Shown in pieces: positions 25,612-46,297 of a stretch of DNA of 64,000 nucleotides. The notes beneath the pieces are model-generated. The model saw only the letters and a program-made list of their open reading frames with translations, was not told the DNA's origin and did not search any database. Numbering within the stretch: the stretch's first letter is position 1; the number at the start of each line of letters is the position of its first letter. This stretch comes from Nostoc sp. NMS7. Lineage in GTDB: Bacteria > Cyanobacteriota > Cyanobacteriia > Cyanobacteriales > Nostocaceae. Position numbers and translations under genes: made by a program. The DNA is taken from assembly GCF_017115085.1 (NCBI RefSeq), contig NZ_JABXKJ010000248.1:4157-68156 (forward strand), read 5' to 3'.

Positions 25612-25684
25612 GGGGAATTAGCTCAGTTGGTAGAGTGCTGCGATCGCACCGCAGAGGCCATCGGTTCAAATCCGTTATTCTCCA
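25612..25684 (+). tRNA. tRNA-Ala (anticodon CGC)
   Basis: Manual cloverleaf: acceptor GGGGAAT/ATTCTCC with a G3:U70 pair, anticodon arm CTGCG-ATCGCAC-CGCAG, and T-loop TTCAAAT. One U-U mismatch in the T stem. Length 73 nt. Confidence 0.85.
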
Positions 25685-25687
25685 TCT

Positions 25688-25844
25688 TGTACATTAAATA
25701 ATTATTGTCACTTTTAAAGAATTAATGTCCATTTTTTCCAAGTTCAGGGGCATAAGTTACGTAGTTTCGCGGCTTTCAGCAATTAAATCGGTTTTAAAGA
25801 ATTATTGTCCAGAGTTGAAACCAGTTTTAAAGAATTATTGTCCA
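25688..25844 (+). repeat. tRNA/CRISPR-proximal transposon end with four TnsB-type ~20-bp repeats
   Basis: Copies of the motif TTTTAAAGAATTATTGTCCA lie at 25692-25711 (terminal), 25712-25731, 25792-25811 and 25825-25844, all in direct orientation. Confidence 0.75.
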
Positions 25845-26033
25845 AAATCAGCCTGTAAAACTCGGCTAAATATATGTTTTCTAATTTAATTGATTACAGT
25901 AAGCCCAAGGCTCTTAAATTACAAGAGTAGCTTTAAAGCTCTTTATTTGCAGTCTAATTACAAAAATATACTACCTCTTGTTTTGCTGTTTCCACCCAAG
26001 AAGAGGCTCCAATAATATATAGCTGCGTTTTAC

Positions 26034-26063
26034 GTGCGATCGCAGCACTCCTTTCAAACCACC
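26034..26063 (-). ncRNA. delocalised short crRNA (truncated repeat + 17-nt homing spacer against tRNA-Ala)
   Basis: 26051-26063 matches the repeat 3' part at 12/13 positions. 26034-26050 is the exact reverse complement of tRNA positions 25633-25649. Confidence 0.7.
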
Positions 26064-26098
26064 CTAATACAGAATTATATAGCCAAAGTGCCATAAAA

Positions 26099-26645
26099 CT
26101 TTCTGCCTACCACCTAAAGGAGGGCTTTGGAAACCCCACACTCCCCTTTGCAGGTAAGACGTAAGACAACTTTAATTCCTTTCAACCCACCACCTAGCGG
26201 AAGGGCTTTAGAAACGAAATTCTCCAAAGCGCCAACTCCAATCCTCATCAGCTTTCAACCCACCACCTAGCGGGAGGGCTTTAGAAACGTTGCTGAAAGT
26301 TATCTTTTAATGGAGACTCGCCTTTCAACCCACCACCTAGCGGGAGGGCTTTAGAAACACCAATTAATCAGGTAGTTGGGGAGACGTTGGCTACTTTCAA
26401 CCCACCACCTAGCGGGAGGGCTTTAGAAACCTATCGTCGGGGTTCATAACGCTGGTTCAGTCAACTTTCAACCCACCACCTAGCGGGAGGGCTTTAGAAA
26501 CCCTGGAGTCGTTGAGTCGTTTTTTGTTACCCGCATCTTTCAACCCACCACCTAGCGGGAGGGCTTTAGAAACACGAATTAACCAGCAGGGCTTGCCTGT
26601 ATCAGAGACTTTCAACCCACCACCTAGCGGGAGGGCTTTAGAAAC
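26099..26645 (-). CRISPR. type V-K CRISPR array, 8 repeats / 7 spacers, transcribed on the minus strand
   Basis: The 37-bp repeat (minus sense) is GTTTCTAAAGCCCTCCCGCTAGGTGGTGGGTTGAAAG. Copies start at 26609, 26537, 26465, 26394, 26322, 26252, 26179 (1 mismatch) and 26099 (degenerate terminal copy). Spacers are 33-44 bp. Confidence 0.95.
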
Positions 26646-26789
26646 CCCACCCACGAAAACTCGTGCCAACAATGGTTTTTGAAGGCAAATTTGACAAGCC
26701 TTCTTTAATTCCTATTTTCTACAGCCAATGAATAAAATTTTATTCATGACTGAAACAGTAATACCCAGTGCAGACAAGAGTTTTGGACG

Positions 26790-27268
26790 ATTGGCAGCAC
26801 CCCAGGGATTTTGACCCCGCTTTGGCTTGCCAAAAATAAAAATTAGGGGGTGGTAGTTCGGTAGCCACCGTGACGGTATACCCGTACCCTTACTTTGTTG
26901 TAAAGTAAGAGGTAATGATCCTCCTCGTAAAACCAAAATCTAAGATTTCAGTAGTACAGGCCGCTCTGGCACCCAACACCAAGCTAAAAGAGTTTGATGT
27001 CAAGAGCTAAGGTTCTGGGCTGTTTGGAACCCTAACACCTTATACTTCCCATGCGTCTCGGTGCGAGTACTTTCTCATCTAACAGCAGTATTAGCTTACC
27101 CAAGCAATTACCACTAACAAACACTTAGATGATCGCACAGGTAGAGTTGGCAGCTACCAGGGCCAGAAAGAATACGCTTTTTAAGCGTTAAACTAACCCA
27201 TTCTTACAGTATTTACATAAAGGGGTCATACTGTCGCATCATTAATAGATGGCACCGATTTAATACAC
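26790..27268 (-). ncRNA. tracrRNA region (boundaries approximate)
   Basis: It lies between the cas12k stop and the array. The minus-strand blocks GGGTTAGTTTAACGC..CTTTCTGGCCCTGGTAGCTGCC (27149-27199) and GGTGGCTACCGAACTACCACCCCC (26846-26869) resemble conserved ShCAST tracrRNA blocks as I recall them. Confidence 0.6.
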
Positions 27269-27296
27269 CAAAATATAGAATATTGAGGTAGAAATT

Positions 27297-29384: not shown

Positions 29385-29545
29385 GGTGACAACATCTCCA
29401 CCGAATCAATAATTTTTTTTTGTTTGTGTAATTTAGAACTAACTACTTATTCGTCTTCGCCAGATAACGATCGCCACTTGACCTGATCGCCATCCAAAAA
29501 CCTCGGTATTATCGCACTTGTTCAGTAATGGTTTTAATCTACCAT

Positions 29546-29577
29546 AAAACATTGTCAAACATTGTTAAACATTATTG
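29546..29577. promoter_or_regulatory. three tandem AAACATT(G/A)T decamers in the cas12k / RHH divergent promoter region (candidate operator)
   Basis: The sequence is aaaacattgtc aaacattgtt aaacattatt. On the minus strand the middle copy overlaps a TTGACA hexamer facing cas12k. Confidence 0.4.
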
Positions 29578-29602
29578 AGCCTTGTTCCAAGGTTACGGGA
29601 GT

Positions 29603-29803
29603 ATGATGAACTGGCAACAAATCTTTGTAGTGTTGATGAGTCAAAGCGATCGCGTACAAACTTCCATATATTTCCCCAAAGATATCCACGAGGCATTGGT
29701 GAGATGGGCTGAGGAAGAAGACCGTCCCATCAGTAATCTTGTTGTGCGGCTTGTGAGTAAGGCAGTTGAGGAGCGGGAAAAGAAGCAAAATCCGCCGCAA
29801 TAA
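29603..29803 (+). CDS. ribbon-helix-helix (CopG/Arc-type) DNA-binding protein, divergent from cas12k
   Basis: The core VQTSIYFPKDIHEALVRWAEEEDRPISNLVVRLVSKAVEE has the beta-strand/helix/helix pattern of RHH repressors. The start is ambiguous (29582 TTG, 29603 ATG or 29636 ATG). Confidence 0.6.
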   Translation: MMNWQQIFVVLMSQSDRVQTSIYFPKDIHEALVRWAEEEDRPISNLVVRLVSKAVEEREKKQNPPQ

Positions 29804-30000
29804 TATCTAGCTTTTGCAGATAGGACAATTTGTAAATTCCTGGTATACGATATATCCTCAGCCACTACATGAGCAAAGTCCTTGTGCGTGGTATGTTATT
29901 GGTTCTTTGCACGATGTAAAAACTTCAAGGCAAAGTGTCAGACGGGCTTAAGAACGTCTGGCAAAGTTGAGCGGGGGAGGTTTTTTGAAGGCTACACGAA

Positions 30001-31925
30001 ATGGCAATTAAAAAAAGTGAACTTTATAGTTCGTTATGGAAAAGCTGTGATGAACTGCGAGGTGGCATGGATGCCTCGCAGTATAAAGATTATGTACTAG
30101 TTTTATTGTTTGTTAAATATGTATCTGACAAATATGCAGGTGTAGCAGATGCACTGATTGAAGTGCCTGAAGGCGGAGGCTTCCAGGACATTGTTGCCCT
30201 CAAAGGACAGAAAGATATAGGGGATGGCATTAACAAAATTATCGCCAATTTAGCCGAAGCCAATGATTTAAAGGGTGTTATTGATGTAGCTGATTTCAAT
30301 GATGCCGATAAGCTGGGCAAGGGTAAGGAAATGCAAGATAGGCTTTCCAACTTGGTGGCGATTTTTGAAACCCCTGCTTTGAATTTTAGTAAGAACCGCG
30401 CCGATGGTGATGATATTTTGGGCGATGCCTATGAGTACCTGATGCGTAACTTTGCGACGCAATCAGGCAAAAGCAAGGGTCAATTTTATACTCCGGCGGA
30501 AGTCTCCCGTGTAATCTCTCAAGTTATTGGCGTTAATTCAGCCCAAAGTCAGAGTCAAACGATTTACGACCCGACTTGTGGTAGTGGTTCTCTGTTGTTA
30601 AAGTCGGCGGATGAAGCAGAACGGGGCTTAACCATCTACGGACAGGAGATGGACAACGCTACCCGCGCCTTGGCTCGGATGAACATGATCCTGCACGGAC
30701 ACCCTACTGCTGAAATTTGGCAAGACAATACTTTATCAACTCCTTACTTCAAAGATGCGGATGGTAGCCTGAAAACTTTTGATTTTGCTGTGGCTAATCC
30801 TCCCTTTTCCTCGAAGGCTTGGAGCAATGGACTTAATCTAGCCAAAGACGAATTTAAACGGTTTGATAACTATGGTATCCCTCCGGCTAAAAATGGGGAC
30901 TATGCTTTTTTGCTGCACATGGTTCGCTCCCTAAAAAGTCAAGGCAAAGGGGCGATTATTCTGCCGCATGGGGTGCTGTTTCGCGGGAATGCGGAGGCGG
31001 AAATTCGGAAAAATCTGATTAGCAAGGGAATTATCAAGGGGATTATTGGGCTACCGCCGAATCTGTTTTATGGGACGGGGATTCCAGCCTGCATTATTGT
31101 GTTAGACAAGGAAGATGCCGAGAATCGCCAAGGCATTTTTATGATTGATGCCAGCAAGGGGTTTGTTAAAGACGGCAATAAAAACCGCCTACGGGAGCAG
31201 GACATTCATAAAATTGTTGATGTCTTCAACAAACAGCTTGAAGTGGCGAAGTATTCGCGGATGGTGTCAGTTCAGGAAATTGCGGGGCATGAGTACAATC
31301 TGAATATCCCGCGCTATATCGACAGTCAGGAAGAGGAAGATATTCAGGATATTGAGGCGCATCTGTTGGGGGGGATACCCGCTATTTTAAAGCTGAACAG
31401 GCGGCGATCGCTACCTTGGAAACGAAAAAGGATGAAATTGTTCGCCAGCAGGAGGAACTGCAAGAAGAACATGGCGGTGAGGAGGGTTTGCTAGAGGAAG
31501 CCACTAATGACAGTGGGAAAATTACCAAAGCGAATGTCAATGATCGCATTAAGGCAATCAAGAATGATGCCACGTTTGCGGATGAGTTAAAGGTATTAAA
31601 GGCTTATTTAAAGCTGATTGAGCAAGAGGCGGAAATTAGTAAAGAAATTAAAGTATTGACTCAATTTTTGGATAATTATATTTTAACAAGATACGGGGAT
31701 TTAACCGAGGACGAGATAAAAACGCTGGTAGTAGATGATAAGTGGATGCCGACGTTAAGACAGGCGATCGCTTCAGAGATGGATCGGATTTCGCAACGGT
31801 TGACAAAGCGAATCCAGGAGTTGGCGGAACGATATGATACGCCTTTACCGGAGTTGACGAGTCGTGTGGAGGAGTTGACGGCTAAGGTTGAAGCGCATTT
31901 GCAGAGGATGGGGTTGGTGTGGTAA
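30001..31925 (+). pseudogene. hsdM: type I R-M methyltransferase subunit HsdM, reading frame broken at a G7 tract
   Basis: HsdM_N region (LWKSCDELRGGMDASQYKDYVLVLLFVKYVSDK) and N6-MTase motifs (DPTCGSGSLL, VANPPFS). After GGIP (31369-31380) the frame decays into an R/K-rich tail. The coiled-coil C-terminus continues in another frame (ORF 31416-31925). Confidence 0.8.
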
Positions 31926-32392
31926 CGGATAAACAGGAAGGAAACTATAAAATTTATCTTGATGTTTGTTGTCTAAATCGTCCTTTTGACGACTGCACAC
32001 AAGAGCGAGTTCGTTTAGAAGGGGAAGCTATTCTTAGCATTATGGAGCGCATTCGTATTAGAGAATGGCGACTTGTTACCAGCGAAGCTATCAGGGTGGA
32101 GTTAGAGAAAATGCGTAATCTCGACAAATTAGAGAATATATTAAAATTCTTGGAATTTGCTGTGATTACTATCAATATAGATGAAGGTGTAGATTTTCGC
32201 TCACAGCAATTGGAGAATTTAGGTTTTGGTCTTTATGATTCTTTTCATATTGCTTGTGCAGAAGTTGCTCAGGCAGATGTCTTACTTTCTACTGATGATC
32301 GGTTACTGAAGAACTCACTACGGCATCAAGGTTTGTTAAAAGTGTCTGTGGATAATCCTGTAACTTGGTTGATGAATACTTATTTAAATTAG
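31919..32392 (+). CDS. PIN-domain protein (toxin-like), paralog 1
   Basis: Contains YKIYLDVCCLNRPFDD ... DSFHIACAE ... LLSTDDRLL. It is 40-50% identical by eye to ORF 34169-34654. Its start overlaps the hsdM stop (GTGGTAA). Confidence 0.7.
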   Translation: MVTDKQEGNYKIYLDVCCLNRPFDDCTQERVRLEGEAILSIMERIRIREWRLVTSEAIRVELEKMRNLDKLENILKFLEFAVITINIDEGVDFRSQQLENLGFGLYDSFHIACAEVAQADVLLSTDDRLLKNSLRHQGLLKVSVDNPVTWLMNTYLN

Positions 32393-32404
32393 GAGGATAA
32401 ATAA

Positions 32405-32605
32405 ATGATGACACCAATTGAGTTGAGAAAAAAAGGTTATCAAATTTTAGTAGAACATTTGGGTCAAGTAGATGCTATTCGCTTTTTACAACAAGCTGGA
32501 TGGGGAAGCGGTGACTATACACAAGAAAGAAAGGAAACGTTAGATAAAGTCACAAGAGAAGAGTTTTGGGAAGACCTGAAGCGGATTAGAAAAACATCGT
32601 GTTGA
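32405..32605 (+). CDS. small partner protein of PIN paralog 1 (antitoxin-like)
   Basis: MTPIELRKKGYQILVEHLG..DAIRFLQQ..GSGDYTQER is a paralog of ORF 34641-34856. Its last codons are supplied by the 21-bp repeat array. Confidence 0.5.
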   Translation: MMTPIELRKKGYQILVEHLGQVDAIRFLQQAGWGSGDYTQERKETLDKVTREEFWEDLKRIRKTSC

Positions 32606-32705
32606 AGTACCCAAACATCGTGTTGAAGTACCCAAACATCGTGTTGCAGTACCCAAATATCGTGTTGAAGTACCCAAATATCGTGTTGAAGTACCCAAAT
32701 ATCAT
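32588..32705. repeat. tandem array of ~5.5 units of a 21-bp repeat related to the 6474-6690 array
   Basis: The unit is tacccaaa(c/t)atcgtgttgaag, head to tail. It shares the core ccaaa-n-atcgtgttgaag with the array at 6474. Confidence 0.85.
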
Positions 32706-32740
32706 ATAGAAAGGTTAATTAAGCTCTTTAAACGATTTAC

Positions 32741-32840
32741 GCAGAGGATTAAGGAGTTGGTGGAACGGTATGATATGCCTTTATAAGAGTTAACGGCTAA
32801 GGTGGAGGGGCATTTGCAGAGAATGGGGTTGGTGTGGTGA
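32741..32840 (+). other. degenerate duplicate of the hsdM 3' end (scar) abutting hsdS
   Basis: About 85% identical to 31795-31925 with a ~22-nt deletion. It ends with the same ...GGGGTTGGTGTGGTGA junction, which overlaps the hsdS GTG start. Confidence 0.7.
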
Positions 32841-34159
32841 AAAAAAGTCTGAATCACGGATTAGAGGGATTACGGGATGACACGGCAGGGATAGAGGGGT
32901 ATAAAAAAACTGAGGTGGGGGTGATTCCTGATGATTGGGAAGTAAAAAGGTTAGGTGATATTGCTGATATAAAAACAGGCCCATTCGGCTCCTCTCTACA
33001 TGAAAAAGATTATGTTGAGGATGGCACACCTATTATCACAGTCGAACATTTAGGTGAAAAAGGGGTAGTGCATAAAAATTTGCCAATGGTTTCCCATGCA
33101 GATAAAAATAGATTAAGTGCTTACATTCTTAAAACAGGTGATATTGTTTTTAGCCGTGTTGGATCTGTAGATAGAAATTCATTAATTAGCGATGTGGAAA
33201 ATGGCTGGCTATTTTCTAGCCGCTTACTAAGAATTAGAATTAATCCTCAAAATATTAGCCCTGCATACCTGAGCTATCATTTTCATCAAGAACCAACAAA
33301 ACAGAGGATTAGAAGTGTTGCAGTTGGTCAAACAATGGCATCACTTAATACTGAAATACTAAAAAATATTGAAGTTATTCTTCCGCCAACTCGTCTTGAA
33401 CAAAAAGCGATCGCTCAATCCCTCAGCGATGTCGATGCCTTGATTACAGAGTGCGATCGCATCATCTCCAAAAAGCGCAACACCAAGCAAGGCACGATGC
33501 AGCAACTCCTTACGGGCAAAAAACGCCTCCCCGGTTTTAGCGGTAAGTGGGAGGTGAAGAAATTAGAAGAAGTAACAGCAATTACAAGACTCGCAGGTGC
33601 AGAATATTCTTCTGTATGGAAGGAAGATGATAATGGTGAAATAATTGCATTGAGAGGATTTAATATTGTAAAAAATCGAATCATTGAGAAAGACTTAGCC
33701 AGAATTTCAAATGAACTTTCTTTGAAGCTAAATAGATCAAGACTTTATAGAGGCGATGTTGTTTATCCTTGTGTAGGAACAATTGGAAATGCAGCTGTTA
33801 TAGAGGAAGATGATAAGTACCACATTCAGCAAAATATTGCCAAAATAACTCCTATCAAAAGTGTCCTTTCATCATATTATTTAGCTCATTATTTGATAAG
33901 TCCTCTTGGATTGGATGAAGTCTTAAGGTTTAACGCAACTTCCAGTCAGCCAAATGTTTTAGTAGGAAGTTTAAGAAAGTATAGGATTCCCCTCACTTCT
34001 ATACCCGAACAAAAAGCGATCGCCCAAATCCTCAGCGACATGGATACAGAAATCGCAGGCTTAGAACAAAAGCGCGATAAATACAAAGCTATCAAACAGG
34101 GCATGATGCAAGAATTATTAACCGGAAAAACTCGCCTAAAATATGATTTAAATAAATAA
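32834..34159 (+). CDS. hsdS: type I R-M specificity subunit HsdS (two TRDs)
   Basis: Two target-recognition halves, each followed by a conserved helix (LEQKAIAQSLSDVDALI; PEQKAIAQILSDMDTEIAGLEQKRDKYKAIKQGMMQELLTGKTRL). Confidence 0.9.
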   Translation: MVKKSLNHGLEGLRDDTAGIEGYKKTEVGVIPDDWEVKRLGDIADIKTGPFGSSLHEKDYVEDGTPIITVEHLGEKGVVHKNLPMVSHADKNRLSAYILKTGDIVFSRVGSVDRNSLISDVENGWLFSSRLLRIRINPQNISPAYLSYHFHQEPTKQRIRSVAVGQTMASLNTEILKNIEVILPPTRLEQKAIAQSLSDVDALITECDRIISKKRNTKQGTMQQLLTGKKRLPGFSGKWEVKKLEEVTAITRLAGAEYSSVWKEDDNGEIIALRGFNIVKNRIIEKDLARISNELSLKLNRSRLYRGDVVYPCVGTIGNAAVIEEDDKYHIQQNIAKITPIKSVLSSYYLAHYLISPLGLDEVLRFNATSSQPNVLVGSLRKYRIPLTSIPEQKAIAQILSDMDTEIAGLEQKRDKYKAIKQGMMQELLTGKTRLKYDLNK

Positions 34160-34168
34160 TTAAATAAT

Positions 34169-34654
34169 ATGGGTAGAAAATATAAAATATATCTTGATGT
34201 TTGTTGTTTAAATCGTTCATTTGACGACCAAACACAGCCGCGAATTCGTTTAGAAACAGAAGCGATTTTAGAAATTATCAGCCGTTGTCGAGATGGAGAA
34301 TGGGAATTGGTCAGTAGTACAGCCCTAGAATCGGAAATTGCACAAACCCCAGATGTAGCCAGAAGAGAACAGGTACTTGAAGCATTAGCGATCGCTCAAC
34401 ATCAGATTTTAGTCACCGAAGAAATATCTAGACGAGCTATAGAATTAACAAACTTTAATATTAAAAATTTTGATGCGCTTCATATCGCTTGTGCTGAAGG
34501 GAACGCCGACATTTTCTTGACAACTGATAACCGTCTATTGTCAAGAGCATTAAACTATAAGAATAACTTAAACATAATAGTTGCTAACCCAATGATCTGG
34601 TTAGCAGAAGTTACCACTAATCTCGTAGAAGGAGGAGAAAATGACCCCGATTGA
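34169..34654 (+). CDS. PIN-domain protein (toxin-like), paralog 2
   Basis: Contains YKIYLDVCCLNRSFDD ... DALHIACAE ... FLTTDNRLL. Confidence 0.7.
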   Translation: MGRKYKIYLDVCCLNRSFDDQTQPRIRLETEAILEIISRCRDGEWELVSSTALESEIAQTPDVARREQVLEALAIAQHQILVTEEISRRAIELTNFNIKNFDALHIACAEGNADIFLTTDNRLLSRALNYKNNLNIIVANPMIWLAEVTTNLVEGGENDPD

Positions 34655-34856
34655 ATTATATAGAAAAGGATTTCAAGCCTTAGTAGATGCTTTGGGATAT
34701 CCTGATGCTATCCGGTTTATTCGCCAATTTGACAACGGAAGTGGAGACTACACCCAAGAACGTCATCAATGGCTCGATCAGCTAACGATGGATGAAATCC
34801 TCACAGACATTAAGCAACGCCAAAAAATATCTGACTCCAAGAATCAGGAACAATAA
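34641..34856 (+). CDS. small partner protein of PIN paralog 2 (antitoxin-like)
   Basis: Contains MTPIELYRKGFQALVDALGYPDAIRFIRQFDNGSGDYTQER. It overlaps the PIN gene by 14 nt. Confidence 0.5.
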   Translation: MTPIELYRKGFQALVDALGYPDAIRFIRQFDNGSGDYTQERHQWLDQLTMDEILTDIKQRQKISDSKNQEQ

Positions 34857-34945
34857 TGAGCCAAGTTGGACAACGGGAACGCCTAAGCCAAAACCGCAAA
34901 CAGGGAATCATGCAAGAATTATTAACCGGAAAGACAAGACTAATT
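34856..34945 (+). other. chimeric scar: hsdR 5' remnant fused to hsdS 3' remnant
   Basis: 34856-34898 is about 80% identical to the hsdR start (35802-35844). 34899-34945 is about 85% identical to the hsdS 3' end (34093-34140). The translation reads MSQVGQRERLSQNR|KQGIMQELLTGKTRL. Confidence 0.6.
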
Positions 34946-35075
34946 AGCAGTTCTTAATCAACGCCAAGGTTTTCAACCGCCAGTCTCTAAAATAGAAGTT
35001 AGAAAGCTCCCCCATTAGCAGCAAACGCCGCACACACTAACGACCAATTCCAAATGACAAGGGCTAAAGCATATT

Positions 35076-35312
35076 ATGGAACACATTGCTACCAGCGAAT
35101 TACCCGAAACGCTTCAACAAATATTTGCAGAAATACAACGCACCAAAACACCCTTAACCGTCACCCATGAAGGAGAACCCTTAGTCATTATCTATCCTGC
35201 CACTCCTCAACCCCACCGCCCAGCATTTGCAGTAATGAAGGGTAGCGGCGAAATATTGGGAGAGGTGATTGCTCCAGTAATTCCTGCTAACACATGGGAA
35301 GCCCTCCAGTGA
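35076..35312 (+). CDS. Phd/YefM-type antitoxin
   Basis: 78 aa with TPLTVTHEGEPLVIIYPA, typical of the Phd/YefM fold. It overlaps the downstream PIN gene. Confidence 0.65.
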   Translation: MEHIATSELPETLQQIFAEIQRTKTPLTVTHEGEPLVIIYPATPQPHRPAFAVMKGSGEILGEVIAPVIPANTWEALQ

Positions 35313-35698
35313 AGCTCTTAATTGATACCCACATCTGGCTTTGGTATTTGCTTGGTAACGAACGCCTATCTCCTCAGCTTCAAACCATTATTGCAGCAGG
35401 AACAACCGAACTTTGGCTCAGTCCAATTAGTATCTGGGAAACGCTACTCTTAGCAGAAAAAGGACGACTATCTTTACAGCCGAATCCAGTTGCATGGGTC
35501 GATTTAGCCTTAAATACCCTAGAAATTCGTGAGGCTCCACTTAATCGCCACATCGCTATTTTAAGCCGTCAGATTAATTTACCACACCAAGACCCAGGCG
35601 ATCGCTTTATTGCAGCTACCGCAGTTTACCACCAGTTGATATTAGCTACAGTCGATACCAATCTCACGGGTGCTTCCTGGTTACAAACATTAAGCTAG
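35294..35698 (+). CDS. vapC: VapC-family PIN toxin
   Basis: Contains LLIDTHIWLW ... SPISIWE ... DPGDRFIAATA ... LATVDTNL, giving the acidic PIN quartet pattern. Confidence 0.8.
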   Translation: MGSPPVKLLIDTHIWLWYLLGNERLSPQLQTIIAAGTTELWLSPISIWETLLLAEKGRLSLQPNPVAWVDLALNTLEIREAPLNRHIAILSRQINLPHQDPGDRFIAATAVYHQLILATVDTNLTGASWLQTLS

Positions 35699-35801
35699 AC
35701 AGAAAATTCACGGATAACACAAATAAAGATGACATAGTTTGATAAACAGTGTCATATTTAAAGCTGAGTAAATCCGTGATTATCACAGTGAGAGAGTTGC
35801 T

Positions 35802-38800
35802 ATGAGCAAGGTCGGACAACGCGAACTCCCAACCCAAAACCGCATTGTGCAATTATTCCAGCAACAATTAAACTATCGGTATCTGGGTAATTGGCACTAC
35901 CGACCTAACAACAGCAACATTGAAACGGAAATCCTCAGCACCTTCCTTGGCGACAAACAAGGCTACAGCAACAGCCTCATCACCAAAGCCTTGTATGAAC
36001 TCAACAAAGTCGCAGGCGACAAAAGCCTTTATGACATCAACAAAGAAGTTTATAGCCTGCTGCGTTATGGGGTGAAAGTCAAAGAAGAAGTTGGCGAGAA
36101 TACCCAAACCGTTTGGCTGATCAACTGGGAAGAACCCCTAGAAAATGACTTTGCGATTGCTGAAGAAGTCACAGTTAAAGGCAAAAACCCTAAACGCCCA
36201 GATATCGTACTTTATGTTAATGGTATTGCGATCGGTGTACTCGAACTCAAACGCAGCATCATTTCCGTCTCTGAAGGCATCCGCCAAAACCTCGATAACC
36301 AAAAATCCATATTTATTAAATCCTTCTTCACCACCATGCAGTTAGTCATGGCAGGTAACGACACTGAAGGACTCCGCTACGCCACAATTGAAACCCCAGA
36401 AAAATACTTCCTCACTTGGAAAGAAGATACTAACAGCGACATCACCGATCCTTTAGATAAACACCTGCTGCAACTCTGCGCCAAAGAACGCTTTCTAGAG
36501 TTAATTCACAACTTTATCGTCTTTGACCGGGGTATAAAAAAAGTCTGCCGCCATAACCAGTATTTTGGGGTTAATGCTGCCCAATCTTACCTCCGTCGCC
36601 GAGAGGGGGGTATTATCTGGCATACTCAAGGCAGTGGTAAAAGCTTGACAATGGTTTGGCTAACTAAATGGATTCGGGAAAACATTACTGATGCTCGTGT
36701 TCTGATAATTACTGATCGAGATGAACTAGACAAGCAAATTGAGAATGTCTTTAAGGGAGTCAACGAAGCGATTTACCGCACTACAAGCGGGAAAGACCTA
36801 ATTAACAAACTCAACAGCACCACCACCTGGTTACTCTGCTCCCTAATCCACAAATTTGGCAAGAAAGACAAGGCAGACGACGCAGACTACAACAGCTACA
36901 TCGAAGAACTCAAGCGCAGCCTGCCCAGCGACTTTAGCGCCAAAGGCGATATCTATGTATTTGTGGATGAATGTCATCGCACCCAATCAGGCACACTGCA
37001 CGACGCGATGAAAGAAATCCTACCCAATGCTGTATTCATAGGCTTTACAGGCACACCCCTACTCAAAAAAGACAAGCAAAACAGCATCAACGTTTTTGGT
37101 GATTACATTCACACCTACACATTCAAAAAAGCCGTAGCCGACCAGGTTATCCTTGATTTGCGCTACGAAGCTCGTAATGTTGACCAAAACATTACCTCAC
37201 AAACCAAAATTGACCAGTGGTTTGAAGCCAAAACTAGAGGTTTAACAGAACACGCCAAAACCCTACTCAAGAAACGCTGGGGAAATCTGCAAAAAGTTCT
37301 CAGTTCAAAATCCCGGTTGGAAAGAATTGTCAGCGATATTCTGCTAGATTTTGAAACTAAAGACCGCTTGCAAAGTGGTCATGGTAACGCTATGCTCATC
37401 TCTGGTAGCATTTACCAAGCTTGTAAATATTACGAGTTATTCCAAAGCGCTGGTTTTATCAAATGTGCCATTGTCACATCCTACAAACCTTCCCCGAATG
37501 ATATCAAAGGCGAAAGTACGGGAGAAGAGGAACTGACGGAAAAATTACGGCAGTACGAAATTTATCAAAAAATGCTCAACGGCAAAGCGGCAGAAGTATT
37601 TGAAGACGAAGTTAAAAATAAATTTGTCGAAGAACCAGCCCAAATGAAACTGCTGATTGTAGTCGATAAGTTGCTGACGGGATTCGATGCACCTTCTGCC
37701 ACTTATCTCTACATCGACAAAACCATGCGCGACCACGGACTATTTCAAGCCATTTGTCGCGTCAACCGCTTGGATGGTGAAGATAAAGAATATGGCTACA
37801 TCATCGACTACAAAGACTTATTTAAAAGCCTGGAAAAATCAATTAACGATTACACCAGCGAAGCATTTGAAGACTACGAACCAGACGACATCGATGGATT
37901 ATTGAGTGACAGAATCGCCAAAGGCAGAGAACGCCTAGAAAATTCCAGAGAAAGCATTAAAGCCTTGTGCGAATCTGTAGAGCAACCCCAAGACACCCAT
38001 GCCTATATTCGCTATTTCTGCGGTGCCGATACTGAAAACCCAGACTTTATAAAAGAAAATCAACAACAGCGCATTGCCCTTTATAAATACACATCAGCTT
38101 TAGTCCGAGCCTATGCTAACCTATCCAATGATATGGCAGAAGCCGGATACACCACAACAGAAACTGAAATTATTAAACAAGAAGTTAAGCATTACGAACA
38201 GGTACGCGCAGAAGTAAAGCTAGCCAGTGGTGATTATATTGACTTGAAAGCCTACGAACCCGCCATGCGTCACTTGATTGATACCTACATTGGGGCAGAA
38301 GAAAGCGAAATAATTTCAGCCTTCGACGACATGACACTAATTCAGTTGATTGTCGAACGCGGTGCAAATGCAGTTGAGGCATTACCCAAAGGCATCAAGC
38401 AAAACCAAGAAGCCGTCGCGGAAACCATCGAAAACAACTTACGCAAAGTTATTATAGATCAACAGCCGACCAACCCGAAATATTTCGACAAAATGTCCAC
38501 ACTGTTGAATGAGTTAATCCAAGCACGAAAAGCAGCCAGCCAAAACTATAAAGCCTACTTACAGAAAATTGTTGAGTTAAGTAAACAAGTTGCTCAACCG
38601 AGTAGCTCATCACAGTATCCTCAATCATTGAACTCTCCTGCTAAAAGAGCTTTATACGATAACCTTAATCAAGACGAAGCGTTAGCTCTAGCGATAAATG
38701 ACGCGATTCGCAAAATCAAAAAAGATGGGTGGCGTGGAAACATAATGAAAGAGCGCGAAGTAAAAAATGCCATTAAGAAATATTTAGATTCCCCGGAAGA

Positions 38801-38846
38801 TTGCGATCGCATTTTTGAAATAGTCAAGAGCCAAAGCGAGTATTAG
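35802..38846 (+). CDS. hsdR: type I restriction endonuclease subunit HsdR
   Basis: 1014 aa. N-terminal nuclease region (PDIVLYVNGIAIGVLELK), helicase motifs (TQGSGKSLTM; VDECHRTQSG; TGTPL) and a C-terminal helical domain. Confidence 0.95.
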   Translation: MSKVGQRELPTQNRIVQLFQQQLNYRYLGNWHYRPNNSNIETEILSTFLGDKQGYSNSLITKALYELNKVAGDKSLYDINKEVYSLLRYGVKVKEEVGENTQTVWLINWEEPLENDFAIAEEVTVKGKNPKRPDIVLYVNGIAIGVLELKRSIISVSEGIRQNLDNQKSIFIKSFFTTMQLVMAGNDTEGLRYATIETPEKYFLTWKEDTNSDITDPLDKHLLQLCAKERFLELIHNFIVFDRGIKKVCRHNQYFGVNAAQSYLRRREGGIIWHTQGSGKSLTMVWLTKWIRENITDARVLIITDRDELDKQIENVFKGVNEAIYRTTSGKDLINKLNSTTTWLLCSLIHKFGKKDKADDADYNSYIEELKRSLPSDFSAKGDIYVFVDECHRTQSGTLHDAMKEILPNAVFIGFTGTPLLKKDKQNSINVFGDYIHTYTFKKAVADQVILDLRYEARNVDQNITSQTKIDQWFEAKTRGLTEHAKTLLKKRWGNLQKVLSSKSRLERIVSDILLDFETKDRLQSGHGNAMLISGSIYQACKYYELFQSAGFIKCAIVTSYKPSPNDIKGESTGEEELTEKLRQYEIYQKMLNGKAAEVFEDEVKNKFVEEPAQMKLLIVVDKLLTGFDAPSATYLYIDKTMRDHGLFQAICRVNRLDGEDKEYGYIIDYKDLFKSLEKSINDYTSEAFEDYEPDDIDGLLSDRIAKGRERLENSRESIKALCESVEQPQDTHAYIRYFCGADTENPDFIKENQQQRIALYKYTSALVRAYANLSNDMAEAGYTTTETEIIKQEVKHYEQVRAEVKLASGDYIDLKAYEPAMRHLIDTYIGAEESEIISAFDDMTLIQLIVERGANAVEALPKGIKQNQEAVAETIENNLRKVIIDQQPTNPKYFDKMSTLLNELIQARKAASQNYKAYLQKIVELSKQVAQPSSSSQYPQSLNSPAKRALYDNLNQDEALALAINDAIRKIKKDGWRGNIMKEREVKNAIKKYLDSPEDCDRIFEIVKSQSEY

Positions 38847-38847
38847 G

Positions 38848-39552
38848 ATGCACCAAATAACTGTCGGTGAACTCGTCATAGACGTTGCCAGAAAAGACAT
38901 TAAAAACTTGCACTTGGCAGTGTACCCCCCCGATGGTCGAGTACGTATCGCCACACCCTTAAACATTGATGACGAAGCTGTGCGTTTATTCGCTATCTCC
39001 AAACTAGCCTGGATTGAAAAGCATAAAGCTAACTTTGAAACGCAAGAACGCCAGTCAAAAAGAGAATTTGTATCTGGTGAAAGTCATTACTTTCAAGGAA
39101 AACGCTATTTATTAAATGTCATTTATGGACTGGGTAATCCCAAAGTAGAAGTTAGAAATAATACTTATATCGACCTTTATGTTAGAGAAGGAAGTAATGA
39201 AGCGCAACGCCAACAAGTCATGATGTCTTGGTATCGACAGCAGTTAAAACAGGAAATTCCCCCATTAATCGAAAAATGGCAAAGGAACATGGGAGTAAAG
39301 GTTGAGGACTGGGGGATAAAGCTGATGAAAACCAAATGGGGTACTTGCAACATCCAAGCAAAACGTATCTGGCTCAACCTCGAACTAGCGAAAAAAGATA
39401 AGCGTTGCCTAGAGTATGTTGTAGTTCATGAAATGGTGCATCTGTTAGAACGTCATCACGGCGATCGCTTTGTGGCTTTCATGAATAAGTTTCTGCCGAA
39501 TTGGAAATTTTGTAAGGATGAGTTAAACCGCTCCCCACTTGGAAGCTATTAA
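38848..39552 (+). CDS. DUF45/M48-type (YgjP-like) zinc metallopeptidase
   Basis: HEMVHLLERHH zinc motif near the C-terminus. It starts 2 nt after the hsdR stop. Confidence 0.8.
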   Translation: MHQITVGELVIDVARKDIKNLHLAVYPPDGRVRIATPLNIDDEAVRLFAISKLAWIEKHKANFETQERQSKREFVSGESHYFQGKRYLLNVIYGLGNPKVEVRNNTYIDLYVREGSNEAQRQQVMMSWYRQQLKQEIPPLIEKWQRNMGVKVEDWGIKLMKTKWGTCNIQAKRIWLNLELAKKDKRCLEYVVVHEMVHLLERHHGDRFVAFMNKFLPNWKFCKDELNRSPLGSY

Positions 39553-39814
39553 GTTCGACTATTAGCCCGATTTAGCTTATAAAGAGCAGGTGATCGCCAT
39601 TTTCTGTGATAGTTCGGTTAATAACAATCTTAACAAACGCAAGCAAGACCAAATTGAGCGTTATAATTTCAGCTACAACATAAATTACCTTGTCTTGGCT
39701 CTACGACATAATGAAGATAGCTGATGAAGTTGGGAATTCTAGCAATTCTTAATCCCACCAAGACTGATTTACGATTTACACAGTCAACAATACGATGTAA
39801 AGTATTGTACAAAA

Positions 39815-40726
39815 TCAAAATAGCTTACTCCAGTTACGACGAAGAATTACACCACGATAGTCTTCGATATAACTCAATGCTGCTCGATTGGTATCAATTA
39901 CTTCTTCAAAATCTCTTGCTTTATCACGAATGTTAACCGAGCGGAGCTTTTGAAGGATTTGCTCGGCAGAATCTAATAGGTTTCTGTGATATTCAACTGA
40001 TTCATCAAATGAGCTTCGCCTGGATGCAAGAGTCTGTGTTCTCAAAGTCTGCAAGTAATGACGAAATGACTCTGATTCCCTAAATCCAGTGGAGCTAGGC
40101 TGAGATCCGCTAAAGAGAATTTTTGCCTCCCAAATAAGGTCACTATTACTAGGTAAGTTTGGTAGCAACAAATAAGATTCTGAAGCAAACCAAGTATTTT
40201 GAAAGGCTTGATTAAGTCCTTGTTGCCAATTATTAATTTTTGCCTCTATCACGATTAATCGTTGGATCGCAAAAATTTCTTCTAATGGTTTAGCTTCCCA
40301 TCTACCTTCCTTGCAATGAATAAGATTTGCCTCAAGTAAACGGCGTAATGATTTGTAGAAATAATTAGGGAAAACCATTTCTAATGTTGATGTTTCAACA
40401 CTAAGTTCAGAAAATATATAATGCAAAATACGTAAGTCAAGCTTAGTAATTTTTAACCTTGTAGGCAACCATTTTTTAGCAATATCAGGTTGAAAGTAAA
40501 CAATAACAATATCAGGAAATCCTGAATCAATTTGAGGCTCTAAAAAAATGAATTTTAACTCCCCATTTTCCGATGGTGATAATAATTTTGATTGAATATA
40601 TTTGTATACCATTTCATATTCAACACCTTTAGTTGGCTTTCTCAATGATAAACTAAGCGTTCCTAAAGATGGAAACTCTTGAAAATTTTCTGACTGAATA
40701 ATAATAGTATGTGAAGAAAGTTGCAT
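39815..40726 (-). CDS. hypothetical protein with PD-(D/E)xK-like motifs and an inserted wHTH-like segment
   Basis: 303 aa. GFPDIVIVYF and IVIEAKINNWQQGLNQAFQ resemble nuclease motifs II/III. A very AT-rich 300-bp region lies upstream. Confidence 0.5.
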   Translation of the reverse strand: MQLSSHTIIIQSENFQEFPSLGTLSLSLRKPTKGVEYEMVYKYIQSKLLSPSENGELKFIFLEPQIDSGFPDIVIVYFQPDIAKKWLPTRLKITKLDLRILHYIFSELSVETSTLEMVFPNYFYKSLRRLLEANLIHCKEGRWEAKPLEEIFAIQRLIVIEAKINNWQQGLNQAFQNTWFASESYLLLPNLPSNSDLIWEAKILFSGSQPSSTGFRESESFRHYLQTLRTQTLASRRSSFDESVEYHRNLLDSAEQILQKLRSVNIRDKARDFEEVIDTNRAALSYIEDYRGVILRRNWSKLF

Positions 40727-41030
40727 TCCTACTTTTTTCTTATGTTAATATAGTATAACATATTCTTGTTTTAGCTAAATTTTAATGCAAATATTTTTAT
40801 TTATAAAAAACTTTATCTTAATTAAAATAAAATTTTTTGAAGGGATTATTTTTTGACTTTAAATGATTTATATTTAGTAGTTTTTTTTAAATAAAAATTC
40901 ACTATTTATTTGTTATTATATTGGATAAAATAGGTTTTACTATTTGTGCCTTTTTTTTCAATATATAAGTGTGAGAAATCCCGGTTCAGTTTTGATTCGA
41001 CTCAATGAGCGCACTCAGCCGGAGCATTAC

Positions 41031-41543
41031 TTAGTAAGCTTTATGTCGCTTTTTCATACTTCTAAAAGGAGCATGGCATTTGTTACATTCTCCCTGTTCC
41101 CATAACGCTGGGATAGTAAAACGCTCTTTGCAAAAGGGACATTCTGAAAGTAGACGTAACTTGTGGCGATCGCACCCCACGGTTGATTGAAACTGCCACT
41201 CTAATCGATGATATGGTTGCTCTACATAACACACAGCACACAACCGTATTGGCTCCATTTTCATTTTTTCACCCTTGGGCGGGAGCATTTGAGCAATTCG
41301 ATCTACATCTAAACCAATTAATTTAGCAATTGCCTCTAATTCCTTTTGACTGGGAACCGGATTCAACCGAAATTTCTCCCACCTTGCTAATACTGGGCCA
41401 ATTCCTGCGGCTTTACTTAAACTACCAGGAGACGAGACGCAAACTGCTTCGTGTCGCCTAAATCGTCCAAAATAGTGACTAATACTCTCCCCTTCGTTGG
41501 GTTCTACATACCAAGGCGGATGTTGAACAGCTTCTGGCTCCAT
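41031..41543 (-). CDS. tniQ: TniQ (short, type V-K form)
   Basis: 170 aa. N-terminal EGESISHYFGRFRR, HTH-like middle, and C-terminal zinc-ribbon cysteines (CAVC...CDRH...CPFC...CNKC). Confidence 0.85.
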   Translation of the reverse strand: MEPEAVQHPPWYVEPNEGESISHYFGRFRRHEAVCVSSPGSLSKAAGIGPVLARWEKFRLNPVPSQKELEAIAKLIGLDVDRIAQMLPPKGEKMKMEPIRLCAVCYVEQPYHRLEWQFQSTVGCDRHKLRLLSECPFCKERFTIPALWEQGECNKCHAPFRSMKKRHKAY

Positions 41544-41669
41544 AACTTACATTTAAATACCTAAACGGCTTGCTATAGACTAGGAAAATAAAACTGTTTA
41601 ACAACTGCCATAGTAGTCCAGTCAGGTATCTTGGCAGGCAGCAAGCTGGTTGAAATCCTGGATGCTAAG

Positions 41670-41719
41670 AGTATTATTCGGTTAACCGAATCTAATTGTT
41701 CGGTTAACCGAATAATACT
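41670..41719. promoter_or_regulatory. double palindrome (two TTCGGTTAACCGAA sites inside a larger 21-bp inverted repeat)
   Basis: agtattattcggttaaccgaa-tctaattg-ttcggttaaccgaataatact. It lies 127-176 bp upstream of the tniQ start. Confidence 0.4.
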
Positions 41720-42028
41720 ATCAAAGAGTGCGATCAGAAATTTTAGGAATCTTTTCTCGCCTATCTCGCCAAAGCCTCGTGGATATCTTGGGCGGAAAGA
41801 TTATATCGAAGTTTGTCCGCGATCGCTTTGGCTTATCAACTTTAGAAAGATTTATCGCCAGATCCATCAGATCGCTGCAACCTTCTTTAAAAACTCAAAA
41901 AGGTTTAGCAATGTTTTTTAATGTGTGACAATGTTTGTATGCTAAAGTAAGAATATTGAAAAACACTAATTTAATGCTTGCAGTAACTTGAAGAATGCTT
42001 ATAGCTTTTGAGATATGGGAAAGCCTCT

Positions 42029-42340
42029 ATGCGTGATATTCTCCCCCAAATACCGCCAGTAGCAATGCCAGAGGTAATTCCCAGCGAATTACCCCAGCAG
42101 AAATATCATCTCGGTGAATGGGTGCGCTGGTTTCAAGTACTCAATGGCGATTTTGGTCGTGTCATCGGAGTAATCTACACCCAACAAGCTAGTTGCATCG
42201 CCACTGGCTTGCACTACTTGATTTTGTTAGATGAGCGCAGTCCCTCTCGTGACACCTGTACCTGCGACTTCGCTTTCGAGGATGATATCGAATCCTTGGA
42301 TAATTCATCCTTGCTACGGCTTAGGGGCAATCATGTCTGA
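42029..42340 (+). CDS. hypothetical protein (opposite strand to the tns genes)
   Basis: 103-aa ORF from the ATG at 42029. Its stop overlaps the next ORF's start (ATGTCTGA). Confidence 0.4.
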   Translation: MRDILPQIPPVAMPEVIPSELPQQKYHLGEWVRWFQVLNGDFGRVIGVIYTQQASCIATGLHYLILLDERSPSRDTCTCDFAFEDDIESLDNSSLLRLRGNHV

Positions 42341-42617
42341 AACTCAAAATTTTCAGCAGTTGCTAAAACTGCACAACCAAATATTTATGTCCCCTCAAGA
42401 CTTTAGTTACCGTTGGGGATTGGGTTACGAAGAATTAGCAAAAATCTGTGCCATCTCTAAATCTACGGCTTATCACTGGTTGAGTGGACAAGCCAGCCGC
42501 CGAGAAGCTGGATTGCCTTACCAGAGAATTATGGCTGTGGCTGATTTTCTTTTCACCAACGCCGAAGTAATTAACCCACTGTTGGAACAGTGGCATAATT
42601 CTCAACCACCAAATTAA
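42333..42617 (+). CDS. small helix-turn-helix protein
   Basis: YEELAKICAISKSTAYHWLSG is a classic HTH. It is coupled to the upstream ORF. Confidence 0.6.
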   Translation: MSETQNFQQLLKLHNQIFMSPQDFSYRWGLGYEELAKICAISKSTAYHWLSGQASRREAGLPYQRIMAVADFLFTNAEVINPLLEQWHNSQPPN

Positions 42618-42825
42618 TTCTTCAGTTTTTGCAAATTGACAAAACTTTTCTTCATCACCTTGACTGACATAAAAAATAGGTAGTAGGGTGCAATTTATCG
42701 TCACCAGCCTACCCACTGTTCCATGAACCGCTCCACCAATGACTCTTATTACCTGCCCTCCAGTATTGAATTGACACAAAACCATGTCCTGATTCATCGC
42801 TTGGCAATCCCTCTCAAAAATGCCA

Positions 42826-43572
42826 TCAGCTACTTACAACAATTCCCCCACTCAGAACATCTTGAGTAAGAAATTTTTGCTCCCAATCGTCCACAACTTC
42901 AATAACATCTTCTTCAGTTAAGTTGGGAAACTCGTATGGCTCTAAAAATGAGTCATGAACGCGCACGTATGGAAGACTTTTTCGTTCGAGAATATTATCA
43001 CTTAAATAGTAAGTTCCAACCAAGATAATAGGGATTCGTCGTTTCGTAAAAATATCAATTAGTTCGTTAAATCCTTCCAAAGTTAGGTAGTCAGCATTAC
43101 CAACTATGAGTATTTTGACACCATAGCTTTTAAGAGTTCCCCATGCCCGCGATCGTAAATCTCGCAGCGCTCCAATATTAGTAAGCGGATGACCCACTTC
43201 TTCTAGAATTGAGTAATACAAATCTGTTGGGCCACCATGCTGATCAATTTCGGCATAAATAACAGTCGCCGGAATTTCTAACAATGTCCCTCGCCGTTTT
43301 ACATATTGCATCCTATAGAGTTGGCAAGATTTCAGCAAACCAGAACCTGTAGCAGATGTAACATAACCACAGAGTTTTGCATCACGCTGGTCATCAAGCC
43401 AGTCAAATAATTCTGTATCGCGGTCTAATGGTAAGTAAGTGTCAGCTTTACCAATTCGCTCAACTTCAGCTTGGATCTTTGGTGAGCGACGCAGTTCCTC
43501 AGCAGACTGTAAACTAGCATCAAACTGCTTCTGAAGTTTTGGTTCTACATGGGCTAAGTTAGTCTCTGACAT
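42826..43572 (-). CDS. tnsC: TnsC-like AAA+ protein with degenerate Walker motifs and truncated C-terminus
   Basis: Collinear with ShCAST TnsC as I recall it (LFDWLDDQR..., VIYAEI...GGPTDLY, PIILVGT, WEQKFL). However, it reads TSATGSGLLKS in place of GESRTGKT and ILIVGNAD in place of LIIDEAD. At 248 aa it ends about 55 aa early. Confidence 0.8.
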   Translation of the reverse strand: MSETNLAHVEPKLQKQFDASLQSAEELRRSPKIQAEVERIGKADTYLPLDRDTELFDWLDDQRDAKLCGYVTSATGSGLLKSCQLYRMQYVKRRGTLLEIPATVIYAEIDQHGGPTDLYYSILEEVGHPLTNIGALRDLRSRAWGTLKSYGVKILIVGNADYLTLEGFNELIDIFTKRRIPIILVGTYYLSDNILERKSLPYVRVHDSFLEPYEFPNLTEEDVIEVVDDWEQKFLTQDVLSGGIVVSS

Positions 43573-43577
43573 TTTAC

Positions 43578-43775
43578 TTACCAGTTATCTTTCACAAATT
43601 GGTTCCAATTTTGTACCCCTACTCTCGGTCGTCTAGCCTTGGTAGTGCGATTAGTTTCAGATTTGTCCTGTTTGTCTATAGAATTTACAGGTTTTTGTGA
43701 GGCAATATCAGGTGCAGATGTAAAACTTTCTTGTGATATAGTTGTTTCCTCCAGTATTGCATTTTCAGGAAACAT
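43578..43775 (-). other. detached C-terminal tail of TnsB (same frame, downstream of the TAA)
   Basis: This ORF is in the same frame as tnsB, 10 sense codons after the stop at 43806-43808. It ends 5 nt before the tnsC ATG, where an intact tnsB would be expected to end. Confidence 0.5.
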
Positions 43776-43805
43776 TTCAACAATTTTCGATCTATTAGAC
43801 TTTTG

Positions 43806-45479
43806 TTACTGTTTTACTTGAGCTTTTCTTTGCCGTTTTCTACGACTTTTACGTTCTTGTTCCACGTCCTCAAATATATTTAGTCGTTCATTCAAAATTG
43901 AAGAATTATCAACTTCCTTAGCTTCCACCCGAAGCTTCTTCTTAATCCAATTTAATTCCCCCAGAGAAAGCCTCTCTTTTTCTAAATCCCTAGCTTTTAC
44001 AATACCAATAAACTCTCCTGGTTGACCGTCAAGAGGACGAGTATAAGCAAGCAGAGTTACAATATTGCGCTGGTCATATCTTAAGGAAATTTTCTGACCT
44101 TCATACTTTACTAAAGAATCTCCCTGATACACCAAACCTCCAAAGTTGGCAGAACCATATTTTTCGACATTCCGATACGCAACTTTCATTAAGCAGATGT
44201 CTAATTCACGTTCATCGAAAACTTCTGGATCACTTAAGAGCATTGATTTCCAGCGTTTAATACGTTTTTGGTTTTTTACCTTTGGATAATCATGCTGATT
44301 GTAGTGGTCTACAAAATATCTCACTAATATTCTTTCTAGCTTATCAAGTGTTAAACATGCAGTTCTCTCTGCTTCTTTAGGGCGTTCCTCAATACTCGAT
44401 CCGGTATATCCTCCATATAAAGACAAAACTTCCTTATTAATCTTGTCAAATATAGTCTCAATTAAACCGCCTGCCGATGGAAAAGCACGTAGCCGACGTT
44501 GGAAACCTAACTGTAGCGAAATTTGCTTCAAATGTGCAGACTTAAATTCCTTGGCGCGGTCTGTAACTAAATATTCTGGAACACCGAGAATATCCCATTC
44601 TTCTTGCAGTTTGTACTCTGGTTCGTAATGCTTTGGCAACATTGAATGACGAAAGGCAAGTGCAACTTCATGTGACCCAGCAGCCTCATATCCCAAATAA
44701 AACCCAACCACACAACCAGAATAGCTATCCATCACTAATGTTATGTAAGGGCGACCAATAATTTCTTTGTCTTCATCATCAATCAACAAAATATCTAACT
44801 TGGTATGGTCAACCTGCCAAATCTGGTTGCTATGGGTAATTTCTAAAATTCCTTCAGTTGTCTGAATAATTTGTCCTTCTGTTGGTGAACCGGGATGGCG
44901 AACTATTCTGCTTTCTTGGTCAATATTAAAATTTATAACTTTATAGACGGTGACATGAGAGGGACACTTTCTCTCTATTAAATCCTTTAATACCTCTGGG
45001 TATTGTTTGAATTTTTCAGCATACTTTTTAGAGCGTAGTTCTTCACCCTTAGATGCCAAAGCTATCAAGTATCCGTGAATTTGATTATGATTTACCCGCG
45101 AACCCTCTTTTTGACCCCATTTATGAATTTCAACTATAAATTGGAACCATTGTTTGCTAATACGAAACTGCCCTTTATCCTGACGACCAACTGCAAGGGT
45201 AGCAACTCCGTCTTTTTGAACTCTCTCAACCATTCGTCTTATAGTTCGGATGCTTTTGCCAAGTGTTTTAGCAGCCTCTGCGATCGCCTCTCTGCGAGTA
45301 TTCTTATCAGGTGCTTGCACAATGGCATCAATGACATCGACTTTTTGCTGAAACTCTGGCGCATCATCATTGAACAGTAGATAAGGCTTTCCCTCTACCT
45401 GCTCCCCACCCTGCTCCGTAGCAACAACTTCCTCATGATCGGAGAGATTAGTGCCTTGACTCAAAGAACGCGTAGACAT
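43806..45479 (-). CDS. tnsB: TnsB DDE transposase (Tn7/Mu-like), prematurely terminated
   Basis: N-terminal HTH domains and a DDE core (IWQVDHTKLD; YLVTDRAKEF; GGLIETIF). 557 aa up to an in-frame TAA. Confidence 0.9.
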   Translation of the reverse strand: MSTRSLSQGTNLSDHEEVVATEQGGEQVEGKPYLLFNDDAPEFQQKVDVIDAIVQAPDKNTRREAIAEAAKTLGKSIRTIRRMVERVQKDGVATLAVGRQDKGQFRISKQWFQFIVEIHKWGQKEGSRVNHNQIHGYLIALASKGEELRSKKYAEKFKQYPEVLKDLIERKCPSHVTVYKVINFNIDQESRIVRHPGSPTEGQIIQTTEGILEITHSNQIWQVDHTKLDILLIDDEDKEIIGRPYITLVMDSYSGCVVGFYLGYEAAGSHEVALAFRHSMLPKHYEPEYKLQEEWDILGVPEYLVTDRAKEFKSAHLKQISLQLGFQRRLRAFPSAGGLIETIFDKINKEVLSLYGGYTGSSIEERPKEAERTACLTLDKLERILVRYFVDHYNQHDYPKVKNQKRIKRWKSMLLSDPEVFDERELDICLMKVAYRNVEKYGSANFGGLVYQGDSLVKYEGQKISLRYDQRNIVTLLAYTRPLDGQPGEFIGIVKARDLEKERLSLGELNWIKKKLRVEAKEVDNSSILNERLNIFEDVEQERKSRRKRQRKAQVKQ

Positions 45480-45505
45480 ACACTTGACCTGTCTTCCAAG
45501 AAAAA

Positions 45506-45688
45506 TGACATCATTTACTTTAAAAGTTTATCAGATAAATGACATCATTTGCTTTAAAACTTGCGAGAGAATAATAAAAGCAGAAATATAGCTCAAAGAC
45601 TTTTGTAGTAAGGCTTTGAGCTTGTTGGACATTTATCGTAAAACTGGACATTAATTCTTTAAAAGTGACAATAATTATTTAATGGACA
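45506..45688 (-). repeat. tnsB-proximal transposon end with five TnsB-type repeats
   Basis: Copies of the motif (reverse complement of TTTTAAAGnAATnATGTCCA) lie at 45506-45525, 45540-45559, 45626-45643, 45645-45664 and, terminally, at 45665-45688. Confidence 0.75.
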
Positions 45689-46297
45689 ACTGCGATCGCC
45701 TGGAGACGAGAACGCATTACCTGCGACGAAGAAGAACGCCTCAAATACGGTTACAATATCACCACCCATTTCCGTTACGACCAGCAAAAACGCCAATCAG
45801 CAACGGTACAAACCGCCGATGGCACAGAATTATTACGTTTAACCTACGGCGCTACGGCAGACATCTGGCATATTAATCGCGGACTGAACAAGAAAAAAAG
45901 TGAGGAACGAGGATTTAAACTCGATATCAAAACTGGTATTTGGGGCGATGCCAAAAACGACTCAGCAAAAGATAGCATTCACACCGATGTTAATTTAATG
46001 GTGAAAAACACCTGCAATATCTTAGTTGTTGAACCATTAAGTGTACCCACAGACGAAAGAGAAGCTTTTATTGCCACTCTGCAATATGTCTTAGAAACTG
46101 CCATCCAAGCAGTCTATAAATTGGAAGCCGATGAACTCGACTCGGAACGCCTGGGAGACGGTAAATATTTGCTGTTCTGGGAAGCGGCAGAAGGCGGTGT
46201 AGGTGTCCTTTCTCAACTATTAGAAAAGCCTGATGCTTTCCAAAAAATAGCCGATGCAGCTTTAGATATTTGCCAATTAGCAATTTTGCTAATGTGA
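45689..46297 (+). pseudogene. internal fragment of a helicase-associated DUF1998-type gene (both ends missing)
   Basis: The frame is open from the first base after the transposon end: TAIAWRRERITCDEEERLKYGYNITTHFRY...LLFWEAAEGGVGVLSQLLEKPDAF.... There is no start codon context, and the expected C-terminal Cys cluster is absent. Confidence 0.6.

Follow-up and report, generated by a model that had tools for sequence, protein, structure and literature searches.

The window, a 64,000-nucleotide stretch of the Nostoc sp. NMS7 genome, contains an element that spans positions 25688-45688 and lies next to a tRNA-Ala gene. This tRNA gene (CGC; 25612-25684, plus strand) is the attachment site, and the CRISPR-side transposon end (25688-25736, with terminal TGTACA) begins 3 nt after it. 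The tnsB-side end is at 45640-45688; its terminal TGTCCA, read on the minus strand, is the same terminus as in four related loci (L009, L010, L012, and L016). Together the ends form terminal inverted repeats of ~50 nt (25687-25736 versus 45640-45689) that are 96% complementary. Reading inward from the tRNA, the minus strand carries a CRISPR array of seven 37-nt repeats, ending ...GGGTTGAAAG (26179-26645), an apparently intact cas12k of 695 amino acids (27297-29384), which matches ShCas12k with an E value of 1e-138 over residues 16-691, and an apparently intact tniQ of 170 amino acids (41031-41543; PF06527), which has the same length in L008, L010, and L012. These are followed, on the same strand, by a 3'-truncated tnsC (42826-43572) and by tnsB (43806-45479). 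The cargo of the element comprises type I restriction-modification and PIN genes.

Cas12k, a CRISPR array, and tniQ thus lie inside Tn7-like ends beside a tRNA gene, as expected of a V2 CAST. V2 TnsB proteins share at least 66% identity with one another and no more than 43% with those of V1 (PMC12416283); since the window TnsB is 70% identical to the copy in Scytonema sp. NIES-4073 (L028) and 39% identical to the V1-type copy of its own genome, the element belongs to the V-K_V2 subgroup (Ziemann et al. 2025, Microlife, PMC12416283). Like the members of that subgroup, e.g., Scytonema sp. NIES-4073, it has Cas12k, an array, a tRNA attachment site, and a Nostocales host; unlike the V2 relatives, which have a 306-residue TnsC, its tnsC is without the last 68 codons and its tnsB is stopped at codon 558. 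The V1-type copy is part of a second tnsB-tnsC-tniQ set in the genome (G000:C135:92800-96050; L002 and L103), in which the open frames are 625, 285, and 190 codons long. The TnsB of that set ends ...ISKHQHKNNIW, which corresponds to neither of the C-terminal motifs described below, that of V2 or that of the ShCAST-like hook.

Several further features of the element were noted. No 5-bp target-site duplication was found at its ends, the flanks being CATCT (25683-25687) and ACTGC (45689-45693), and an ORF ~300 nt past the tnsB-side end (45998-46297) encodes part of a helicase-associated MrfA Zn-binding-domain protein; the unmatched flanks and the MrfA fragment suggest rearrangement after insertion. 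Two segments, one upstream of cas12k (29547-29709) and the other between tniQ and tnsC (41759-41936), form an inverted duplicate of ~160 nt that is ~84% identical. The second copy lies directly upstream of a pair of plus-strand ORFs (42008-42340 and 42231-42617, the latter with an HTH_23 match), an arrangement common to L010. The duplicated sequence may serve both places as a common promoter or operator.

Two lesions in the transposition genes

The tnsB reading frame begins on the minus strand at the ATG at 45479 and runs for 557 codons to ...RKAQVKQ, where it meets a premature TAA (43808-43806) at codon 558. Matches to PF09299, rve, and HTH models place a helix-turn-helix, a DDE/RNase-H core, and the Mu-transposase C-terminal domain in this 5' part of the gene. 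The 557-residue product aligns with ShCAST TnsB (7SVW and 8RDU) at an E value of 2e-107, and the catalytic residues are aligned: the acidic residues in qvDHT, vTDra, and liEti correspond to ShCAST D205, D287, and E321 (numbers read off the alignment). The TAA lies opposite ShCAST TnsB R535, within the flexible linker, and the product therefore ends at the equivalent of residue 534.

Past the stop, the same frame continues as QKSNRSKIVE, then M (43775), then FPEN...RPRVGVQNWNQFVKDNW, before a TAA at 43580-43578; only 5 nt (GTAAA) separate this end from the tnsC ATG at 43572. The first-pass annotation had reported that tnsB stops at 43806-43808 and that its frame reopens into the ORF at 43578-43775, and both the coordinates and the arithmetic are correct: 45479 minus 43775 is 1704, or 568 × 3, placing the two ORFs in one frame. 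Translation of the minus strand likewise bears out its statements that the tail ends 5 nt before the tnsC start and that the read-through protein would be 633 amino acids long. The detached tail comprises 75 codons in the tnsB frame (43581-43805, minus strand) and covers what is left of the flexible linker, followed by the C-terminal hook. The last 15 of these codons (RVGVQNWNQFVKDNW; 43581-43625, minus strand) are the counterpart of the TnsC-binding hook of ShCAST TnsB; the hook coding sequence has thus been kept, but the TAA at codon 558 splits it from the TnsB core.

The adjacent tnsC is also damaged. Its product of 248 residues matches the 306-residue proteins of L008, L010, and L012 up to residue 238 (...WEQKFLTQD) and then continues with 10 unrelated residues to a TGA, i.e., the gene consists of 238 native codons, 10 foreign codons, and a stop. 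Over the first 238 residues, it is 93% identical to the 306-residue proteins of L008 and L010. The junction is at 42855-42857, where ~1.5 kb is missing with respect to L009, L010, and L016: homology to L010 switches there from its position 11963 to 13472, and homology to L009 and L016 jumps likewise. In the relatives, a cargo gene of 437 amino acids lies between tnsC and tniQ, and the deletion took most of this gene together with the last 68 codons of tnsC. The 248-residue TnsC has a 90% cluster (P0136) with only one other member, a protein of 136 residues; the contig of this protein equals in length (93,700 bp) that of an intact 633-residue TnsB (P0133). All aligned V2 TnsC proteins (window residues ~72-82, and L008, L010, and L012) read ...TSATGSGLLK[AS]C at the site expected to hold a Walker A motif, GxxxxGK[ST]. 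Complementation in trans by another element was considered and judged unlikely, as the genome has just one other CAST, which is V1-type; its TnsB is 39% identical, and its TnsC, the sole other one in the genome, shares 30% identity.

The tnsB tail and the TnsC-binding hook

A homologue search using the 633-residue read-through protein as the query returned, by the dozen, orthologues of 626-639 amino acids with 100% query coverage. Their C termini align with the tail throughout, ending ...RRPRVGV[KQ]DWNQF[MV][KR]DNW, and this motif is at the extreme end in at least 112 of the 120 homologues listed, at identities down to 40%. The 75 codons are not open by chance, because homology to the C termini of full-length orthologues extends across all of them; judged by this homology, the tail is real coding sequence. 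The first-pass annotation had suggested aligning the tail with V-K TnsB C termini, while allowing that intact orthologues might end at ...KAQVKQ and have no tail; the homology instead runs along the entire tail, and the orthologues carry both it and the conserved end motif. V1-type relatives have ...MPEV[FL]DYEQMREDYG[WF] at the equivalent C-terminal position.

The view that the extreme C terminus of the transposase contacts its AAA+ partner, also put forward in the first-pass annotation, is documented for ShCAST: the last 15 residues of ShCAST TnsB (570-584) are a hook that binds TnsC filaments (PMC9371665). Transposition is abolished when the hook is absent (construct 1-569; PMC9371665 and PMC9876797), and the free hook peptide coats TnsC yet gives no stimulation of disassembly (PMC9371665). 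Like the hook-deleted ShCAST TnsB (1-569; Park et al. 2022, PNAS, PMC9371665), the window product is without the hook, and it is also without most of the linker. Unlike that engineered construct, it arose naturally, by mutation of a V2 protein ~40% identical to ShCAST TnsB, and the hook sequence itself differs, being DWNQFVKDNW in the window and DYEQMREDYG[WF] in ShCAST-like V1 relatives. Neither the 75-residue tail nor its last 24 residues gave a relevant match in phmmer searches against the PDB, and a profile of 21 homologues aligned with ShCAST TnsB as far as residue 561 only, short of the hook. The correspondence of the two hooks is consequently one of extreme C-terminal position and of the motif in V1-type loci, rather than of a residue-by-residue hook alignment.

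Codon 558 in related loci

At the DNA level, codon 558 is GAA in L009, GGA in L008, GCA in L010 and L016, and GAG in L012; in the nine nearest proteins, residue 558 is Glu in eight and Gly in one. The window TAA is a single G>T change from the GAA (Glu) codon of L009. A stop at this codon was found in none of 11 same-genus homologues (from a set of 126 further genomes in the genus), none of the 57 loci surveyed, none of the nine nearest proteins, and none of more than 130 proteins overall. The locus survey returned 80 loci, among which Scytonema hofmannii PCC 7110 is absent. The closest intact allele (P0127) is 98% identical, differing at 11 of 633 positions, and with respect to the nearest proteins, the only amino acid changes private to the window tnsB are E558stop and K563R. 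The stop is therefore a recent event. Lineage-specific changes in tnsB number six non-synonymous and four synonymous, which are too few to show relaxed selection.

In-frame stops do occur at other positions of tnsB, in L034, L053, L056 (Richelia), and L101 (Trichormus azollae), and the gene is rearranged or truncated in L042 and L044. Because these breaks are independent and lie elsewhere in the gene, random decay of tnsB is common and not confined to one site. Degraded V-K systems have been reported before, the truncated proteins having been removed from that analysis (PMC12416283). In other degraded V-K CASTs of cyanobacterial genomes, tnsB is likewise broken by an in-frame stop, a frameshift, or a truncation, but the positions of the breaks differ, and that at codon 558 is unique to the window genome. 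The genomes with an independently broken tnsB include those of Spirirestis, Leptolyngbya FACHB-321, Richelia, Trichormus azollae, Anabaena FACHB-1237, and Nostoc WHI.

Origin and consequences of the stop

The first-pass annotation had offered three alternatives for the interrupted frame, namely a pseudogene, a sequencing error, and stop-codon readthrough acting as a regulatory valve. The pseudogene is favored by the private stop and the tnsC deletion, whereas the second contig described below counts against a sequencing error, and the evidence is strongly against the valve. An error of sequencing or assembly would mean that the true codon at 43806-43808 is a sense codon (GAA) and that tnsB is intact, and this we judge improbable. 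The difference from the L009 allele is indeed only a single base, the remainder of tnsB is undamaged, and the genome is a 271-contig draft; the near-absence of further decay in tnsB beyond the stop would fit a base-call error as well. However, substitution errors are rare in consensus assemblies, and the exact 557-, 65-, and 248-residue products are each present on two contigs (NCBI, Logan, and ENA being among the sources), one of which is the 72,030-bp C201 that holds the window, while the other probably comes from the same sequencing run and is only partly independent. The presence of the truncated products on both contigs disfavors an artefact of one assembler. Moreover, the neighboring tnsC carries an independent 1.5-kb deletion, which would leave the element non-functional already, or also.

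Taking the stop as real, we consider it most improbable that it is read through, whether as a programmed or a merely tolerated event in which a few ribosomes decode TAA-C as sense and supply a low level of full-length TnsB. The downstream frame is open, the hook is intact, and the stop is directly followed by a C. In E. coli, termination is considered weaker when a C directly follows the stop codon. The stop is nevertheless not conserved in the same-genus homologues, surveyed loci, or wider set of proteins enumerated above, and TAA is the commonest stop in this genome (among open frames of at least 300 codons, TAA closes 1438, TAG 760, and TGA 641), with rplA ending in the same TAA-C context. 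Among the 42 tRNAs that ARAGORN found in the genome, none has the anticodon TTA, CTA, or TCA, so no stop-reading tRNA is at hand; the tRNA set and the stop-codon usage also led us to reject a genome-wide reassignment of TAA. In folding stability, the 131-nt segment surrounding and following the stop does not exceed shuffled sequences (z = -0.13), leaving the downstream RNA without evident structure, and any full-length TnsB made would face a truncated TnsC. We find scarcely more to recommend a functional split, in which TnsB(1-557) and a separate 65-residue tail peptide starting at the ATG at 43775 cooperate, or the hook-less TnsB inhibits related elements. An ATG does lie 10 codons past the stop, and gene callers annotate the 65-residue ORF; against this, the Met at 43775 falls at an unremarkable position inside the protein (LEMFPEN or VELFPEN in relatives), no obvious ribosome-binding site was seen before its codon, and the split arrangement occurs in no relative (57 loci and 11 same-genus homologues). 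In ShCAST, furthermore, TnsB is inactive without its hook, and the free hook peptide fails to stimulate disassembly (PMC9371665). An equally slim chance attaches to the proposal that TnsB(1-557), although hook-less, is maintained as a functional protein that could occupy V2 ends without engaging TnsC, in a dominant-negative or "immunity" role, or that rare TAA-C readthrough meters the full-length transposase.

Very probably, then, the stop arose by a recent, lineage-specific change of Glu558 (GAA in L009) to TAA in the tnsB gene of an immobilised, decaying V-K_V2 CAST. A single G>T change would have converted the codon, and translation would end after residue 557. The resulting protein is predicted to retain the DNA-binding and DDE catalytic domains and to lack the last 76 residues, including the hook that would tether it to TnsC. 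By analogy with ShCAST, a TnsB without the hook would not be recruitable to the Cas12k/TniQ/TnsC target complex, and we infer that the truncated protein has lost its function; the comparison is with a V1 system whose TnsB is ~40% identical to the V2 protein of the window. The 1.5-kb deletion has independently taken the C-terminal 68 residues of TnsC, leaving the element broken twice, while the guide module (cas12k, the array, and tniQ) still appears intact. Given the 3' deletion in tnsC, the question of TnsB-TnsC coupling in this element is moot.

The tnsB truncation is that of an ordinary, recently disabled mobile element and not a regulatory device. A single tnsB pseudogene should be annotated across the ORFs at 43806-45479 and 43578-43775, and the element should be recorded as an immobilised V-K_V2 CAST that is non-autonomous; beyond annotation, the finding matters little. 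Anyone seeking a working V2 CAST in this genome should turn to an intact relative, e.g., L008 or L010, for tnsB and tnsC. The natural truncation is placed where ShCAST biochemistry predicts that coupling to TnsC would be lost, and the C-terminal motif DWNQF..DNW, strongly conserved across V2 and related clades and different in V1, could guide hook-swap engineering.
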